From the sequence record PP400786: a stretch of 64,000 bases of DNA; one strand, written 5' to 3'. Positions within the stretch are counted from its first letter, which is position 1, and each line of letters begins with the position of its first letter. The translations under genes and the position numbers were made by a program. Shown here in pieces: positions 35,015 to 43,798 of this stretch. Under the pieces are notes generated by a model, which saw only the letters and a program-made list of their open reading frames with translations, was not told the DNA's origin and did no database searches. The DNA is from Escherichia phage FL12.

Positions 35015-35517
35015 TTAAAAGTATTTTTTAAAACTCATCATAACTTTATCATCAACATCATTATCAATCTGTGCAACAAGGTAAGATGACAGTTCTACTT
35101 CTTGTGGCGCGGATTGAACATTATCAGAATTAAGATATTCACGAATCCAAGGATACGGATGTTTAACCGGAGCATCGGTAATTGGGCATGGAAGACCACA
35201 CTGTTTCATACGAGATACAGTTAAGTAATCAATAAAGCTCCACATGCTATTTGTATTTAATCCAGGAACATCACCATCTTTAAATAAATGAACTGCCCAA
35301 TCTTTTTCTTGGCGGTTAACTTCCATGAAAATATCAACTGCTTCTTGTTCACACTCTTGAGCAATTTTAACCCATTCATCACCATCAGTGCCGGATTGAA
35401 GTTGACGAATAATATATTGAGTGCCTTTAAGATGAAGCTGCTCATCACGAGCAATGAACTTCATAATCTTGGCATTACCTTCCATGATTTCCATGTTCTT
35501 ATGGAAGTTAAAGGTAC
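35015..35517 (-). CDS. nrdB: ribonucleotide reductase small subunit NrdB, exon 2
   Basis: Encodes ...TFNFHKNMEIMEGNAKIMKFIARDEQLHL..., aligning with E. coli R2 ELMEGNAKII; joins exon 1 to give SFACTFNF. Confidence 0.88.
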
Positions 35518-36107
35518 CGTTATGTTCGATTGAGCTCGCTAATTCTCAACCCGTTCTCTTATGAACTGCTACATATTACTATGCAGACCAGACTATATCA
35601 CAATCCCAGAGGGATTCTCCCCATTTCGAGTCGCTTGACCCTACGTCCGAAGACTAGTCGTTGAACCTTGCTTTGCAATTGTCGCCGTGCCATCGTTTAT
35701 ATGTTGATGGTGATAAATCTTTCTTATCACAATATGGACAATTCAATTGAATTCTATTTGGATTTAATTTACATCTGTCATTATGTTTTAGATAAAATCC
35801 AGGACCTTTACCAATGTGCCCGCAGAAATCACATGTGATTTCTTTTTGTGCAGGATGGGTCCCGTTCTTAACCATTTCTAATGTTTTTGCTGATGTTCTT
35901 TTCTTATGGTCCCATCAGAATCTTTAAGTAGGTCCGTCAGCATCTATCCAAATTTTTCTATAGTTCAATTGTGCATCCTCTTAAAAGTATAATCATATTA
36001 TACTAATTAAAGGTGCAAGCAAAACCTTGGCTGCTAGTTTTCCTATAAAGGACTTTCCAGCAATTAAAGGAGTTTTCGATAAACGTTACCGTTTAAAGGC
36101 GCATTTT
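35518..36107 (-). mobile_element. group I self-splicing intron in nrdB (590 nt)
   Basis: Interrupts NrdB after conserved YVSFA; 5' splice site after U (GCGU), 3' end ...GAACAUAACG; core-like GGGUCAAGCGACUCGAAA and GAUAUAGUCUG elements resemble the T4 td intron. Confidence 0.8.
35654..35875 (-). CDS. truncated intron-encoded endonuclease remnant (I-TevIII-like C-terminal Zn-finger fragment)
   Basis: 73-aa ORF inside the nrdB intron with CDFCGH...CPYCDKKD Cys motifs. Confidence 0.5.
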   Translation of the reverse strand: MVKNGTHPAQKEITCDFCGHIGKGPGFYLKHNDRCKLNPNRIQLNCPYCDKKDLSPSTYKRWHGDNCKARFND

Positions 36108-36783
36108 ACGCAAAAGATACATAAAAACGAATAGCTTCTAAGGCATTAATAACGTGCAAACAGAGGTAAAGAGATTTCATTAAAGCACGTTTAGCTTCGG
36201 CTTCTTGTTTAATAGCTCGGTTTAAACGAAAGTCGGCATCAGGAGATTCTTTAGCTAGTTCTACAAATTCTTTAGCATTTTCCCATTCACGGGTTTTAAC
36301 CAAGACATCATCATAATAACGTCCAATGGATTCAGCTCGTTTCATAATAGCTTCATCTAATACAATCTCATCAAATACCTTTGACGGATCAGTATAAAGA
36401 TTTCGCATGATATGAGTATATGAACGACTGTGAATAGTTTCACTAAAAGTCCATGTAGCAACCCATGTATCTAATGAAGGATCTGAAAGCAATGGCATAA
36501 GTACCGCAGATGGTGCACGACCTTGAATGCTATCAAGTAACGATTGATATTTAAGATTATTAGTAAAAATATTTTGTTGATACTGAGGAAGTTTATTAAA
36601 TTGAGTAGCATCCATCATCAAGTTAACTTCTTCAGGACGCCAGAAAAACGAGAGCTGACGTTCAATAAGTTCTTCAAATACCCTATGTCGTTGAATATCA
36701 TAACGTGCAATTCCAAGACCAGACCCAAAAAACATGGGTTCTGTTAAAACATCGACCTGTTTAGTATTAAAAACTGTACTCAT
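36108..36783 (-). CDS. nrdB: ribonucleotide reductase small subunit NrdB, exon 1
   Basis: Encodes MSTVFNTKQ...LEAIRFYVSFA matching class Ia R2 up to the conserved RFYVSFA segment. Confidence 0.88.
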
Positions 36784-38375
36784 TATTTTGTCCTGTAAAC
36801 TAAATTTCCACAGTCCCAGATTCTTCTAAGACCATTTGCATAACAATTTTCTACTTCAGTTATTGTATCATCATAATTTTTAAGCTTGTTTTTAAGCTTA
36901 TGTTTCATATAGCTTGAGCGGTGAAATACCTCTCCTTTATCGACGTACCAATAACACGGCTCAGAGATATGACTAAATTCCATGACAGAGTCATAAACAT
37001 TTGATAATGTACTGCACCATCTTCGATTGCCATAAGATAGACAATTAATTCCTTTTAATAATTTTGAGACTCCTCCTACAACACAAACCCCCAATTTTGA
37101 ACACATCCTTAAAAGTTCATCACCTGAGCTATATCTAGATTTACCGATAGAAATAATTTGAACTAACTCATTATTGTAATAAAGTCCTTTATACGTATGA
37201 GCTCCCGAGCAAAATCCTTGAAGATGATTCTTATTAATAAATTCTTTTGCCTCATCCTTATTAACAAAACGCGCTTTGCATTTTCGGGCTGGTATTCTTT
37301 CTGATAATCCTAATTTATGCTTTATAATGGATTTCCAGATCTCTCTTTTTGTATCATCAATCCATTCATTTTCGAAGATGTGAAGTAATTGAATTCCTTG
37401 TGCTTCACACATCTCTGTCTTCATCAAATGATAAGTTTCTTTAATTTTATCTGTTTCCTTTGACCCGCTAGAATGCCAATAAATTCCATCGTATTCTATA
37501 GCCAATTTTTTCTCAGGAATGTAAATATCTAATTCATACGGAGGAATAATTTTTCTAGTTTCTACGCAATCAAATCCTAGATCTAAAATGAATTGCTCTA
37601 TAGAACTTTGAGTATAATGAACGTCAATTAGTCCTTTGGATGAAAGAGCTCTATAAGCCGTCATCCGAGAACAATTTGCTAATTGTTGTAGTTCTTCTAT
37701 AGAAATTTTGTAATTGATTTTATCTAGTATATCATGATTAATATGACCGTTATTTTTAATAGATTTTCCTATAGATGAATATAACGATGCCTTATATTCT
37801 TCAGTCCAATTTAATTTGGTCTTCTTAGATTTTTCGCGAGATTTTTTAGAATGCAGAATATCAACTGATTTACCGTTTTCTATAACTTTTCTCGCTTCTT
37901 TCACACTTTCTAATTGTGAATTATGCGTTACCCCATATCGTTCAATTAAAGTTTTTCTATTTTTATTTCTTGAAATTTTTTGATGAGTTGTTCCATATTT
38001 TTCTAAAGAATTTTTGTGTTGAAGTTCAGACAAATATTTTTTATATTTTTCTTTTCCACCAAAATTTGTATCACGGCTTTGAGTTCTCTTATCCGCGAAA
38101 AATATCCCTGCGCAGGATTTACTACATGTTGCTGGAAATACACGTTTCTTTGCTGTTTTCAGAGAAATGAAATTTCCACAAACTGCACATTTTAGATCGT
38201 TAATGTCAATGCCTTCCATAATTTGGAACACATTGAGCTTAAAATCTATTCCATCAGTTAGAAGAGCTTTATCTTCTTCTGTTAGTCTAGATTTAAGTTT
38301 TTCTTCTCCAAATGGAAGAAACTTTCCGTTTTTGTATATATTATCAAACATAGCGTTATTCTTAGTTAACCACAT
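36783..38375 (-). CDS. 530-aa multi-domain putative nuclease (Zn ribbon, YG-x-x-H repeats, HTH, Vsr/PD-(D/E)xK-like motif) in the nrdA-nrdB intergenic slot
   Basis: CAVCG...CSKSCAG; KYGTTHQ / RYGVTHNSQ repeats; HTH-like ISIEELQQLANCSRMTAYRAL; YELDIYIPEKKLAIEYDGIYWHS. Confidence 0.7.
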   Translation of the reverse strand: MWLTKNNAMFDNIYKNGKFLPFGEEKLKSRLTEEDKALLTDGIDFKLNVFQIMEGIDINDLKCAVCGNFISLKTAKKRVFPATCSKSCAGIFFADKRTQSRDTNFGGKEKYKKYLSELQHKNSLEKYGTTHQKISRNKNRKTLIERYGVTHNSQLESVKEARKVIENGKSVDILHSKKSREKSKKTKLNWTEEYKASLYSSIGKSIKNNGHINHDILDKINYKISIEELQQLANCSRMTAYRALSSKGLIDVHYTQSSIEQFILDLGFDCVETRKIIPPYELDIYIPEKKLAIEYDGIYWHSSGSKETDKIKETYHLMKTEMCEAQGIQLLHIFENEWIDDTKREIWKSIIKHKLGLSERIPARKCKARFVNKDEAKEFINKNHLQGFCSGAHTYKGLYYNNELVQIISIGKSRYSSGDELLRMCSKLGVCVVGGVSKLLKGINCLSYGNRRWCSTLSNVYDSVMEFSHISEPCYWYVDKGEVFHRSSYMKHKLKNKLKNYDDTITEVENCYANGLRRIWDCGNLVYRTK

Positions 38376-38391
38376 CCTTGTGGTAATTATA

Positions 38392-39381
38392 TCATAATTT
38401 ACAGGATGAACAATCTTCAGCTTTTGGAGTTTCTATTTCATAATCATCAGTACCAGAACCATCACGGGTATTATGATAATAGAAATTTTTAATGCCATAA
38501 TACCATCCGTATAGCATGTCATCAATCATTATTGACATTGGAACCTTTCCTTTTGGAAAAATCTGCGGGTCATAATATGTATTCGCTGAAGCTGATTGAC
38601 ATACCCATTTCAGCATAATAGCTACCTGCGTAAGATAAGGTTTATTACCTTTCTTAGCTAATTTCCATGTATAGTCGTAAAGGTCTATGTTATGCTCAAT
38701 ATTGGGCACGACTTGATTAAAGGAGCCCTCTTTTGATTCTTTAACAGAGACTGGTCCACGTGGAGGCTCGATACCGTTTGTACTGTTAGAAACTTGGGAA
38801 GATGACTCACATGGCATAAGTGCTGATAATGTGCTATTACGGATGCCAAAGAGCTTAAGGTCTTCCCGCAGCGCCGACCAATCACAAACGTATTTTGGAG
38901 CTGCGATTTGGTCAATCTTTTTATTGTACCAGTCGATAGGTAATTCGCCTCGAGACCAACGAGTGTCTGAATAATATTCGCAAGGTCCTTTTTCTTTGGC
39001 GAGCTTAATGGATGCTTTAATGAGTCCATACTGTAATCTCTCAAATAGTTCATGTGTTAAATCGTTAGCATCTTCATAAGAAGCAAAGTTACTTGCCAGC
39101 CAAGCTGCATAGTTGGTAACACCTACACCAAGATTTCGACGCTTTTTAGCTTTTTCTGCTTCAGGAACTGGATATCCTTGGTAATCCAAAAGATTATCAA
39201 GAGCACGAACTTGAACTTCTGCCAATTCATTAATTTTATCTTGGTCTTGCCAGTCAAAATTATCCAGTACGAATGCGCTAAGGGTACAAAGCCCCACTTC
39301 TCCCTTGTTTTCAATAACTTCTATTGTAGTATACTCATCATCTTCGTAAAATTCATCTACAAATTCATAATCAATATTCAT
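38392..39381 (-). CDS. nrdA: ribonucleotide reductase large subunit NrdA, C-terminal piece (329 aa) with novel acidic N-terminal leader
   Basis: After leader MNIDYEFVDEFYEDDEYTTIEVIENK, sequence GEVGLCTLSAF... to C-terminal CSSCKL aligns with E. coli R1 residues ~456-761. Confidence 0.85.
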   Translation of the reverse strand: MNIDYEFVDEFYEDDEYTTIEVIENKGEVGLCTLSAFVLDNFDWQDQDKINELAEVQVRALDNLLDYQGYPVPEAEKAKKRRNLGVGVTNYAAWLASNFASYEDANDLTHELFERLQYGLIKASIKLAKEKGPCEYYSDTRWSRGELPIDWYNKKIDQIAAPKYVCDWSALREDLKLFGIRNSTLSALMPCESSSQVSNSTNGIEPPRGPVSVKESKEGSFNQVVPNIEHNIDLYDYTWKLAKKGNKPYLTQVAIMLKWVCQSASANTYYDPQIFPKGKVPMSIMIDDMLYGWYYGIKNFYYHNTRDGSGTDDYEIETPKAEDCSSCKL

Positions 39382-40081
39382 TTAATTCTTTTACCTTTTT
39401 TCTAGTAATTCCTAAAGCTTTAGATGCTCGATGTATTGATTGATATTCTATACCGTTTATTTTTACAGCAATTAAGTTATGGGGTTTTAATCCCTTTGGA
39501 TGAGGTTTACTGACGAAAACTAAATTATCAAGCTCTGAAATCTTATCCAATTTCTTACACTTAAATCCTTTGTGATGCGACCGTTTACCTTTACAAACGG
39601 CTGACATTGCAGATGGATTTAAATTATGCTCTTTACAAAATTCGTTAAGACCTCGATGAATTTCCTCATGACCATCAGGAAATGTAAACACCCAAGATGT
39701 TTGAAGTCGAGATTTAACTTCTGGAGACATAGGAATACCTTTGTTCCAAGCTGGTTTGCCTTTATTATTTTCAGATACAGAAATAGCCAATTTTCTTCTA
39801 AGCCACCCATGGCGTTTATTGGTGTTCTTTCGTTCAATATTATCTTTAGAATAAACACACATCATATTAGCGGCAAATATCAATTTATGATTATTTGGAT
39901 ATATCTTTACTAATAATTGATGAGCTATGTAATGCTCTTCTGGCGTCAAATCTACCAGGTTTTCCTTTGTATCAGAACCACCAATACACAGAGGTATAAT
40001 ATGGTGTGATTCGGTATAGCAATCTAATTTTCTATTCTTAGCTTTAGAAATAAGGTTATTGTAAATTTTAAAATAATCCAT
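39371..40081 (-). CDS. HNH homing endonuclease (Mob-like) inserted within nrdA
   Basis: 236 aa; HNH motif ESHHIIPLCIGGSDTKENLVDLTPEEHYIAH; NUMOD-like GKPAWNKG motif; stop overlaps NrdA C-piece start. Confidence 0.85.
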   Translation of the reverse strand: MDYFKIYNNLISKAKNRKLDCYTESHHIIPLCIGGSDTKENLVDLTPEEHYIAHQLLVKIYPNNHKLIFAANMMCVYSKDNIERKNTNKRHGWLRRKLAISVSENNKGKPAWNKGIPMSPEVKSRLQTSWVFTFPDGHEEIHRGLNEFCKEHNLNPSAMSAVCKGKRSHHKGFKCKKLDKISELDNLVFVSKPHPKGLKPHNLIAVKINGIEYQSIHRASKALGITRKKVKELNEY

Positions 40082-40126
40082 AACTTTTCCTCTTGTTATG
40101 GATTATTTATTAACGGTCTGTGTACT

Positions 40127-41560
40127 TTATTTGCTTTGAATTATACCGTCAGGATTAGCTTCATAAAACTTAGCTACATCCGACTTCTTAATTTTGATTA
40201 AACGGGTTTGTTGGCTATTCACATCATTTGTTGGAATAGCAATTTCACAACACAAGTTACTCTGACGAATAGGCGCCTTTTCGCGAATAAACGGAGTGTA
40301 GTTATTCGTATTATCAATGAACTGTACATAAATCCTTGCTGTTCCTGAACGTTCAGTCATGAGCAATTCAAATAGTTCACGGGCTTTAATACGCTTTTTA
40401 CGAATATTAGGGTCTTTTTCTGCTGCTTCGTATAATTCACGGAAACGGTCTTGGTCTTTAAAATAAGAATAATAAAGCTCGCCACCCATTTCATGTGGAC
40501 TGAACAAAGTAATGTAATCGTTCTTTCCAAAACGTTCCATCATCAAATCATTCAGCTGAACACCATAATCCATATGACGAATGCGGTTTTCTTCTACGCC
40601 TTTGTTATTTTTCAAAACGAGAAGATTTTCAACTTCCAAATGCCAAATAGGATAATAAGCAGTAGCAGCGCCGCCACGAATTCCACCCTGTGAACATGAT
40701 TTAACTGCAGTCTGAAAATGTTTCCAAAAAGGAATAACACCAGTATGGCGTACTTCACCCATGCCAATCTTAGAACCTTCGGCACGAATCATACCAACGT
40801 TAATACCAATTCCAGCGCGTTTAGAGATATATTCAACAATTGAAGCGGAAGCCTTATTGATAGACTTCAATGAATCTCCTGCCTCAATAACAACACATGA
40901 ACTAAACTGTCGAGTAGGAGTACGACAACCAGCCATAATAGGAGTTGGCAGTGAAATTTGTCGGGTTGATACTGCTTCATAAAAACGAATAACGTGTTTT
41001 AGTCTATCAACAGGTTCATCTTGATGCAGTGCCATTCCAATAGTCATAAATGCAAACTGTGGAGTTTCATAAATTTGACCAGTGGTTTTATCTTTAACTA
41101 GATATTTTTCTTTTAATTGCATCGCCCCGGAATAAGTAAATTCCATATCCCGCTCATGCTTAATTTTTGATTCTAAAAATGTAATTTCTTCTGCTGAATA
41201 TTTTGACAATAATTCAGGGTCGTATTTACCTTCATTTACACAGTAAGAAATATGGTCAATAAATGAACGTGGTTCATACTGCCCATAAACATGCTTACGA
41301 AGAGCGAACATTAGACAACGTGCAGCTACATATTGATAATCAGGCTCTTCAACCGAAATAGAATTCGCAGCGGCCTTAATGACAATAGTCTGAATATCAT
41401 CAGTTGTCATTCCATCACGGAGATAAGATTTAATATTTTCATATAATTCATAAGGATCTACTGATGTTCCTTCAGCTGCCCAAGATAAAACTTTAATAAT
41501 TTTTTGTGGGTCAAAGCTCTGAGAAACACCACTACTTTTGATAACATTAATTAATTGCAT
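40127..41560 (-). CDS. nrdA: ribonucleotide reductase large subunit NrdA, N-terminal piece (477 aa) with 28-aa C-terminal read-through tail
   Basis: Contains active-site SNLCCEIAIPTNDVN (E. coli SNLCLEIALPT...NDVN) then non-homologous tail ending in TAA. Confidence 0.88.
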   Translation of the reverse strand: MQLINVIKSSGVSQSFDPQKIIKVLSWAAEGTSVDPYELYENIKSYLRDGMTTDDIQTIVIKAAANSISVEEPDYQYVAARCLMFALRKHVYGQYEPRSFIDHISYCVNEGKYDPELLSKYSAEEITFLESKIKHERDMEFTYSGAMQLKEKYLVKDKTTGQIYETPQFAFMTIGMALHQDEPVDRLKHVIRFYEAVSTRQISLPTPIMAGCRTPTRQFSSCVVIEAGDSLKSINKASASIVEYISKRAGIGINVGMIRAEGSKIGMGEVRHTGVIPFWKHFQTAVKSCSQGGIRGGAATAYYPIWHLEVENLLVLKNNKGVEENRIRHMDYGVQLNDLMMERFGKNDYITLFSPHEMGGELYYSYFKDQDRFRELYEAAEKDPNIRKKRIKARELFELLMTERSGTARIYVQFIDNTNNYTPFIREKAPIRQSNLCCEIAIPTNDVNSQQTRLIKIKKSDVAKFYEANPDGIIQSK

Positions 41561-41877
41561 AAGTCCTCAACTTGAAAATCGTCTTTAAACAATCGGTTAA
41601 CTATATGAGCTATTATATCACCATGACACGGCTTTGGTTTACATGTGCATCCTAGCCTCATTCCACGTAAAGGCTCTAAATGTGCTTTAGTTATTTCTCC
41701 GGATTTAATTCGACGTATAAAATCTTTTTTGAATAATTCAATGGCAGCCTCCCGGCTGCCAGCATCTTTACCGACGTAATTTCCCCAAAATGTACCACGG
41801 TGAATATTAACATCAAAGTCGGATTTATATTTATTCACTACCCGACATAGACGGCCCACGCTGGAATAATTCGTCAT
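41551..41877 (-). CDS. DUF4326-like small protein (position of T4 nrdA.1)
   Basis: 108 aa; C-terminal [20 protein letters not shown] resembles the DUF4326 C-x-C-x(4)-CHGD signature. Confidence 0.6.
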
Positions 41878-42106
41878 ATTGTTTTTCCGTTAAAACAGTA
41901 ATATCGTAGTAACAGTCAGAAGAAGTTTTAACTGTGGAAATTTTATTATCAAAATACTCACGAGTCATTTTATGAGTATAGTATTTTTTACCATAAATGG
42001 TAATAGGCTGTTCTGGTCCTGGAACTTCTAACTCGCTTGGGTTAGGAAGTGTAAAAAGAACTACGCCAGAAGTATCTTTAAATCGTAAAATCATATATCC
42101 TCGCAA
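41831..42106 (-). CDS. hypothetical protein (position of T4 nrdA.2)
   Basis: 91-aa ORF. Confidence 0.55.
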
Positions 42107-42114
42107 TAATAAAA

Positions 42115-43798
<1,684 letters not shown>

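Follow-up and report, generated by a model that had tools for sequence, protein, structure and literature searches.

In Aeromonas phage Aeh1 the gene encoding the ribonucleotide reductase (RNR) large subunit, nrdA, exists in two pieces with a mobE-type HNH homing endonuclease gene between them, an arrangement written nrdA-a / mobE / nrdA-b (Friedrich et al. 2007, as cited in PMC3045599; Crona et al. 2010, PMC3045599). The two products, NrdA-a and NrdA-b, were purified as separate chains, the split enzyme is active, and the tails found on either side of the split are essential for assembly of the (a/b)2 complex, for NrdB binding and for activity (PMC3045599). This RNR was presented as unique among about 1200 nrdA sequences (PMC3045599), and a 2013 survey of split phage RNR genes named only Aeh1 for an endonuclease-mediated split (PMC3653736). 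A 2022 preprint mentions "Aeh1 and several others", citing unpublished data, and its supplementary alignment includes 'MobE_split' sequences (10.1101/2022.08.31.505936). Here we describe an nrdA gene interrupted by such an element, in a 64,000-nucleotide (nt) stretch of Escherichia phage FL12 (record PP400786); this whole stretch is the window, and all coordinates are positions in it. The kind of element is already known and the coliphage lineage has already been noticed, with GenBank records annotating its pieces as two nrdA genes and a homing endonuclease; in the literature we found no published analysis of the coliphage cassette lineage.

Our reading, to which we give a probability of roughly 0.8, is that the region represents one more Aeh1-type mobE-in-nrdA cassette, which leaves its host gene in pieces. 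The cassette would be a 904-nt mobile unit sitting in the loop between Cys439/Glu441 and Cys462 of NrdA (E. coli numbering is used for NrdA residues), and the split NrdA would be assembled from two polypeptides.

The locus lies on the minus strand, where the listing of open reading frames (ORFs) gives, in order, NrdA-a (41560..40127, 477 amino acids (aa)), an HNH ORF (40081..39371, 236 aa) and NrdA-b (39381..38392, 329 aa). An earlier note on this DNA had claimed that nrdA is divided into two ORFs by an HNH gene, and all three ORFs are found where it placed them. The NrdA-a core (aa 1-449, 40214..41560), recognised from the ORF and from Pfam, has 98% nucleotide identity to the intact T4 gene. 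Pfam assigns to NrdA-a the ATP-cone, the RNR all-alpha domain and positions 1-221 of the barrel profile, which is its first half, and the core bears the equivalents of Cys225, Asn437, Cys439 and Glu441, with the motifs RQFSSC and SNLCCE. The other half of the barrel profile, positions 219-523, is found in NrdA-b. The NrdA-b core (aa 27-329, 38392..39303), again recognised from the ORF and Pfam, has 97-99% nucleotide identity to the intact genes of T4 and FL18 and bears the equivalents of Cys462, Tyr730/Tyr731 and the C-terminal CxxC, with the motifs LCTL, YYHNTRDG and CSSCKL.

Each piece carries an extension that intact nrdA lacks and that the cassette encodes. NrdA-a runs to ...SNLCCEIAIPTNDVNS and then continues for 28 residues without homology to intact NrdA, QQTRLIKIKKSDVAKFYEANPDGIIQSK, a basic C-terminal tail (40130..40213) closed by a stop codon at 40127-40129. 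NrdA-b starts at its own ATG, 11 nt upstream of the HNH stop, such that the two ORFs overlap by 11 nt, and an acidic leader of 26 aa, MNIDYEFVDEFYEDDEYTTIEVIENK (39304..39381), precedes the point where homology resumes at GEVGLCTLSAF. The earlier note had described both extensions from the letters alone, and the 28 non-homologous codons and the overlapping start were correctly read. It had also called the leader novel; the leader is present and cassette-encoded, but neither it nor the tail is unique to FL12, both being conserved in the mobile cassette. A further statement, that the three ORFs are all in different frames, needs amending: NrdA-b alone is in another frame, whereas NrdA-a and the HNH ORF share one (both starts are 1 mod 3). 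There are stops between the ORFs as had been said, including two in-frame TAA codons within the 45 nt that separate NrdA-a from the HNH ORF. This shared frame is not kept in other lineages.

The insertion point could be defined by alignment with the uninterrupted nrdA genes of T4, FL18 and JS09, of which the comparison with T4 had been proposed beforehand as a check. The cassette appears as a clean insertion of 904 nt, at 40212..39309, after ...AAT GAT GTG AAT AGC C; it comprises the a-tail, a spacer with a promoter-like box and a hairpin, the HNH gene and the b-leader, and is a gap in all three intact genes. Within it, the sequence on the two sides of the HNH gene measures 131 nt and 62 nt, close to the 130 and 60 nt that had been estimated. 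Intact genes read NDVN(S/N/G)-PDA-EIGLCTLSAF, and the uninterrupted T4 nrdA contains ...CCAACAAATGATGTGAATAGCCCTGATGCTGAAATTGGATTGTGTAC... around the site; FL12 reads NDVNS followed by the 28-aa tail, and then the 26-aa leader followed by GEVGLCTLSAF. At the downstream junction all cassette alleles carry GAAGTGGG (E-V-G) and intact genes GAAATTGG (E-I-G). Homology to intact NrdA stops at NDVNS (E. coli D454) and restarts at GEVGLC (G457-C462), so the break falls between D454 and G457, in the loop that joins the strand of N437, C439 and E441 to the strand of C462. The split is thus located between Cys439 and Cys462; the earlier note had placed it a few residues past the catalytic Cys/Glu region.

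The likeness to Aeh1 that the same note had pointed out can be raised to homology, in the endonuclease, in the tails and in the loop that is invaded. The HNH gene (39371..40081) belongs to a MobE-split lineage. Pfam finds in it an HNH domain (18.2 bits, under the gathering cut-off of 21.4) and an I-HmuI NUMOD-like domain, and it matches phrog_655, homing endonuclease. Its product is 46% identical to Aeh1 MobE over 227 aa, the full length (E 2e-59), and the two are reciprocal closest full-length relatives among 50,697 phage records, where the next best full-length matches reach 31-35%. The geometry is also alike. Aeh1 has an nrdA-A of 473 aa, a 46-nt spacer, a mobE of 237 aa, a 14-nt overlap and an nrdA-B of 323 aa; FL12 has 477, 236 and 329 aa with a 45-nt spacer, and in both the HNH and NrdA-b ORFs overlap. 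The same gene is split in the same loop, the Aeh1 break lying between its Cys431 and Cys31 equivalents (PMC3045599), and a hairpin is found at the start of endonuclease translation in both phages. The a-tail is LIKIKKSDVAKF in FL12 and LFKVKKSEVDKF in Aeh1, the b-leader FYEDDEYTTIEV and VYEDEEYTTVEI, and the homologous stretches within them are QQTRLIKIKKSDVAKF... against KEKMLFKVKKSEVDKF... and ...DEFYEDDEYTTIEVIEN... against ...YEVYEDEEYTTVEIEVD... respectively. Taken by sequence, these comparisons support the view that the FL12 element is homologous to that of Aeh1, beyond mere similarity.

The two cases also differ. The distal part of the a-tail is not the same, and biochemistry exists for Aeh1 whereas the FL12 lineage is known from sequence. 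The host gene in FL12 is a coliphage nrdA, 98% identical to the intact gene of T4, and the cassette was therefore gained horizontally and not from a common ancestor with Aeh1. Finally, Aeh1 is a single genome, whereas the FL12 lineage is polymorphic in a large population of near-identical phages, and its mobility is directly visible as a result.

The cassette is present in about 34 GenBank records of T4-like coliphages, which amount to roughly 27 phages labelled Tequatrovirus or Mosigvirus, against around 800 records with a related nrdA. The flanking genes are of two types, T4-type and JS09-type, which are 77-78% identical to each other, but the cassette is 99-100% identical across both (HY01/ZQ3, F26/PTE05). 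For example, between HY01 and ZQ3 the tail is 100%, the HNH gene 99.7% and the leader 100% identical. A cassette so uniform in backgrounds so different must have moved recently. There are two HNH alleles, which differ mostly in 39463-39763, and as each is found in both nrdA backgrounds, either two or more recent transfers took place or one transfer was followed by recombination. That tails and endonuclease move together as one unit, as had been predicted, is confirmed.

The sequence next to the insertion is informative in this respect. The junction-proximal start of the NrdA-b core, GEVGLCTLSAFVLDNFD... (39250..39303), is seen in alignments with intact genes to be a mosaic of the first ~55 nt past the leader, and the switch back to recipient sequence differs between phages. 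This tract is 75-92% identical among carriers, while the rest of nrdA-b is 94-99% identical among T4-type carriers. Such a short and variable junction mosaic is characteristic of homing accompanied by co-conversion. The altered right half-site may in addition shield carriers from cleavage by their own endonuclease.

Over deeper time, the full-length relatives of the HNH protein recovered from a search of 5.8 billion proteins have identities of 67, 64, 63, 58, 55, 53, 55 and 50%, followed by Aeh1 at 46%. The order nrdA-a / HNH / nrdA-b was found in 8/8 of the metagenomic contigs that we looked up for these relatives. A search of IMG/VR for further copies of the cassette returned Aeh1 as the sole full-length relative; in the other 36 loci the match is confined to the N-terminal HNH domain or to short fragments. 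The HNH genes have diverged in step with nrdA, a parallel that is consistent, at the level of these alignments, with long residence together with transfer among relatives. The Aeh1-type cassette, tails included, is thus in circulation among common T4-like coliphages, and at least eight other lineages, all uncultured, have it too.

Two further observations concern this set of records. Where the two coliphage HNH alleles diverge, in 39463-39763 (codons ~107-206), they are 71-82% identical, and 95-100% identical elsewhere; the divergent stretch covers the NUMOD-like DNA-binding region, which suggests either that the gene recombined with that of another endonuclease or that target recognition has diversified. 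In the Escherichia phage HY01 record (KF925357.1, 541-3709) the homing endonuclease is annotated and neither nrdA piece is. Split genes of this type are annotated inconsistently, and are easily taken for pseudogenes or gene loss.

An indication that the split products are used comes from the tails. Both tail segments are open and in frame with their own nrdA piece in 12 lineages, Aeh1 included, down to about 50% divergence. The a-tail keeps the motif PT-x9-L[IVF]K[IV][KR]K[SCK][DE][IV]xxF with a net charge of +2 to +7, and the b-leader keeps YE.V.EFYED[DE]EYTT[ILV][EQ][VI]-x8-[LI]CTL with a net charge of -7 to -14. Spacing from these motifs to the PT and [LI]CTL anchors is invariant on both sides, and the polarity of charge, a basic a-tail and an acidic b-leader, is the same in 12/12 lineages. 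Measured from the anchors, the FL12 a-tail has an isoelectric point (pI) of 9.3 and the b-leader one of 4.1; those reported for the Aeh1 tails are 10.4 and 3.8 (PMC3045599). Nucleotide differences at codon positions 1/2/3 number 9/9/171 in YEDDEYTT and 108/33/219 in the a-tail motif, with synonymous changes dominating. Variation dominated by third positions shows that the tails are conserved as peptides, and hence that they are selected in translated form. Catalytic residues are intact in both pieces across all lineages, the sole gaps being contig truncations. We speculate that the segments LIKIKK and TTIEVIE may pair with each other in a ribbon of complementary charge.

The tails resemble nothing else that we searched. 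A profile of 10 fused tails, run on PDB sequences and on Pfam, gave noise only, the best E values being 0.096 and 0.0017, to single members. An origin from the canonical T4 mobE flanks (NrdB.1 and the 3' end of nrdA) or from elsewhere in the window was considered and rejected, as tblastn matches were at chance level (best E about 0.06-0.2). Among near-identical coliphage cassettes, codon 21 of the leader (39319-39321) is E, K or Q (GAA/AAA/CAA), and codon 472 of the a-tail (40145-40147) is D (GAC) in the FL12 window alone and G (GGC) in the others. These variants are non-synonymous and lie at charged positions in tails that are otherwise invariant.

The start of the endonuclease gene is the other conserved feature. 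A fold of the 131-nt region (z = -3.5) contains an RNA hairpin at 40071..40108 whose stem is perfectly paired over 14 bp (AAAUAAUCCAUAAC / GUUAUGGAUUAUUU); its loop holds the Shine-Dalgarno sequence GAGG and its 3' arm the AUG of the HNH gene. This AUG hairpin recurs in most lineages. In an alignment of 8 lineages 94.5% of cells are paired, compared with 32-43% in slid controls, and 3 pairs have changed on both sides. Overlapping the 5' arm is a box resembling a T4 late promoter, AATAAATA (40111-40104), which is one mismatch from the T4 sequence TATAAATA; lineages P0006, P0007 and P0012 have the exact TATAAATA in that place. For I-TevI, for the other endonucleases encoded in T4 introns and for Aeh1 mobE, a late promoter and a hairpin confine translation to late times (PMC2988022). 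By analogy with these genes, whose hairpin at the initiation region and late promoter have counterparts in the FL12 sequence, we infer the same control of the HNH gene. A scan for sigma-70 promoters and terminators gave nothing above shuffled expectation, and is uninformative for T4 middle and late promoters.

Taken together, these features suggest the following mechanism. NrdA would be made as two polypeptides, NrdA-a with its basic tail and NrdA-b with its acidic leader, with no splicing of RNA or protein. The two would associate and rebuild the barrel and a composite active site, and the oppositely charged, element-encoded tails would help the (a/b)2 large subunit, and the holoenzyme with NrdB, to assemble, as in the biochemistry of Aeh1. 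The hairpin that buries the AUG may keep the endonuclease silent on early and middle transcripts of the nrd operon, and a late transcript starting inside the 5' arm of the hairpin may then allow its translation. The endonuclease is predicted to cut the uninterrupted nrdA of co-infecting phages near the insertion site, after which repair would copy the entire cassette and a short downstream stretch of nrdA.

Several points weigh against this proposal. Function in FL12, meaning the two polypeptides, the activity of the enzyme, use of the late promoter and the cleavage site, is inferred by homology at 46-59% identity to Aeh1, the only characterised case. The late-promoter box in FL12 is inexact, at 7/8 matches. 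In Aeh1 a 13-bp stem covers the Shine-Dalgarno sequence, but the FL12 stem covers the AUG instead, a difference in register. In the coliphage lineage NrdA-b has a weak or distant Shine-Dalgarno sequence, an AAGG that lies 12-13 nt upstream. Lastly, a cassette that was gained recently could sit in a non-functional nrdA without visible decay, because T4 nrdA is dispensable in nrd+ hosts.

This last point leads to the alternative that deserves most attention, namely that the cassette inactivated nrdA, that the ORFs are recent and still intact remnants, and that the phage relies on host NrdAB, on its own anaerobic NrdDG or on both. T4 nrdA is listed as auxiliary in nrd+ hosts (a table in PMC5931544 citing Miller 2003), the cassette is in only about 4% of related phage records, and since it reached the coliphages recently the intact ORFs there carry little weight. 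Inactivation is conceivable, but it is hard to square with the strong purifying selection on the tail peptides in 12 lineages, which is sensible only if the split products are used, or with pieces and catalytic residues that are intact in lineages as divergent as Aeh1. Long residence without decay, as implied by an HNH divergence that tracks that of nrdA, speaks against it too, and the split enzyme of Aeh1 is fully active and dependent on its tails (PMC3045599). We regard inactivation as improbable, at something like one chance in ten. A break introduced by sequencing or assembly into a continuous gene, which the earlier note had named as a possible refutation, is at the other end of the scale: we found nothing in its favour, a frameshift error cannot yield a 904-nt insertion with an intact ORF of 236 aa, and about 34 independent GenBank records, with 8 metagenomic lineages besides, show the same structure. 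We treat error as excluded for practical purposes.

Splicing has to be considered at two levels, RNA and protein. If the cassette were a group I intron, its removal by splicing would leave an uninterrupted nrdA mRNA, and what look like tails would belong to the intron and not be translated. T-even RNR genes do hold such introns, including nrdB in the FL12 window, and the 131 + 62 nt of sequence outside the HNH gene is small for an intron core, yet not impossible. The earlier note had called an intron unlikely on account of these short flanks; that judgement stands, but the argument from the flanks is not decisive by itself. Rfam has limited sensitivity here, as our scan of the whole window at the gathering threshold misses even the true nrdB intron and is consequently uninformative on introns. 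In E-value mode, however, a scan of 38000-42000 gave no Intron_gpI match up to E = 10, and the same mode recovers the nrdB intron (34 bits, E 1e-6) as a positive control. The coding-type constraint on the tails is, to judge from the alignments, the stronger argument: they are in frame in 12 lineages and vary at third positions, as expected for constraint on a peptide and not on an RNA. The Aeh1 homologue, moreover, gives two separate polypeptides (PMC3045599), and an intron seems very unlikely to us. An intein is a slightly poorer candidate still. The tails could be the halves of a split or degenerate intein that joins NrdA-a to NrdA-b by trans-splicing, for split inteins with embedded or adjacent endonucleases break nrdA in metagenomes (PMC2677866), an origin from a degenerate intein was raised by Crona et al. 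(PMC3045599), and the related lineage L052 has a genuine intein in the same gene. That said, the tails total about 54-63 aa, far short of a HINT domain. There is no conserved Cys/Ser at the start of the a-tail, and the leader does not end in His-Asn followed by Cys/Ser/Thr but reads ...GEVG|LC. The profile of fused tails matched no intein, nor any other family or structure, and the Aeh1 chains stay separate (PMC3045599). The earlier note had dismissed an intein because of the stops and the frame change between the ORFs, and this conclusion is upheld, with tails of 28 + 26 aa that lack junction residues and have no similarity in Pfam or PDB.

The Aeh1-type cassette can also be set beside other endonuclease genes of T4-like phages. 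T4 MobE (PMC2790892) shares the N-terminal HNH nuclease domain with the FL12 protein, at 45% identity over the N-terminal 130 aa only, and both genes are associated with the nrd operon. T4 mobE, however, encodes 141 aa, is intergenic between nrdA and nrdB and so interrupts neither, nor any other gene, and its product has no C-terminal half with a NUMOD-like DNA-binding region. The FL12 gene, of 236 aa and inside nrdA, is not a MobE in the strict T4 sense. A closer parallel in layout is T4 MobA in the topoisomerase gene 39/60 (10.1101/2022.08.31.505936), also a Mob-family HNH gene inside the ORF of an essential enzyme. There too the upstream piece has a C-terminal and the downstream piece an N-terminal extension, a short element-borne replacement of host sequence lies beside the junction, and insertions have occurred repeatedly and independently. 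The FL12 element differs in its target gene, in having no translational bypass cassette, and in the length of its extensions (28 + 26 aa, compared with about 44), and the tails of the two have no detectable sequence similarity. The intron and intein endonucleases of RNR genes (e.g. the T4 nrdB intron with I-TevIII) likewise invade a critical conserved site and bring a device that neutralises the damage, and the intron-borne ones are also under late-promoter and hairpin control of translation (PMC2988022). In FL12 neutralisation would be achieved by protein assembly through the tails, in contrast to splicing of RNA or protein.

One may ask whether Aeh1-type cassettes are a class of their own. 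In our opinion the odds are slightly in favour of tail, HNH gene and leader being a discrete class of mobile element, one that neutralises its own insertion by protein assembly, as a third strategy beside introns and inteins. The basic and acidic tails would then be a conserved and portable heterodimerisation module, kept down to 46% endonuclease identity and still homing between coliphage nrdA alleles that are 23% apart. If this is true, T4-like coliphages offer a genetically tractable system for studying how an active site in fragments is rebuilt by tails. The FL12 case brings the system into E. coli/T4 genetics, in which homing crosses, mutagenesis of the tails and complementation of hosts deficient in nrdA are routine. 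The comparative data set gained here covers residues that do not vary, spacing that is fixed, the polarity of charge and a regulatory hairpin that covaries.

The cassette has other selfish elements for company. The window is that of a T4-like coliphage, and the neighbours of the locus are frd, td, nrdA.2, nrdA.1 (DUF4326) and nrdB. The nrdB gene contains a group I intron at 35495-36105 on the minus strand, between ORFs 36106-36783 and 35015-35494, with about 98% identity to that of T4 nrdB, the I-TevIII remnant region included. Its Rfam Intron_gpI match, at 35569-35809 (34 bits, E 1e-6) and 4 kb from the cassette, is under the gathering score of 50, which is why a default scan misses it. The gap between nrdA and nrdB, where T4 has mobE and nrdB.1, is filled by an unrelated ORF of 530 aa (36783-38375, minus strand). 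It matches phrog_3339, 'homing endonuclease' (E 2e-150), and has a weak match to the VSR-like REase_MTES_1575; Salmonella phage SG1 has a counterpart that is annotated 'Hef-like'. Within its 6.6 kb the nrd operon accordingly holds three selfish elements: the cassette, the 530-aa endonuclease gene and the nrdB intron.

The thymidylate synthase gene td (42115-42975, minus strand) is uninterrupted in FL12. An intron with an endonuclease gene is present in the td of T4, F26 and FL18; in T4 the gene is an intact I-TevI, and FL18 has a short ORF. Phages that are otherwise 97-98% identical hence form a mosaic in the introns and endonucleases that they carry. A last observation comes from lineage L052 (L052:707-2551, metagenomic contig ERZ14207129 NODE_16), whose NrdA-a of 614 aa has a mini-intein exactly at the catalytic Cys439 (SNL|CLSGDS...ILVHN|CLEIA). 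With no more than 15 residues between this upstream intein and the MobE split, two different selfish elements occupy one active-site segment.

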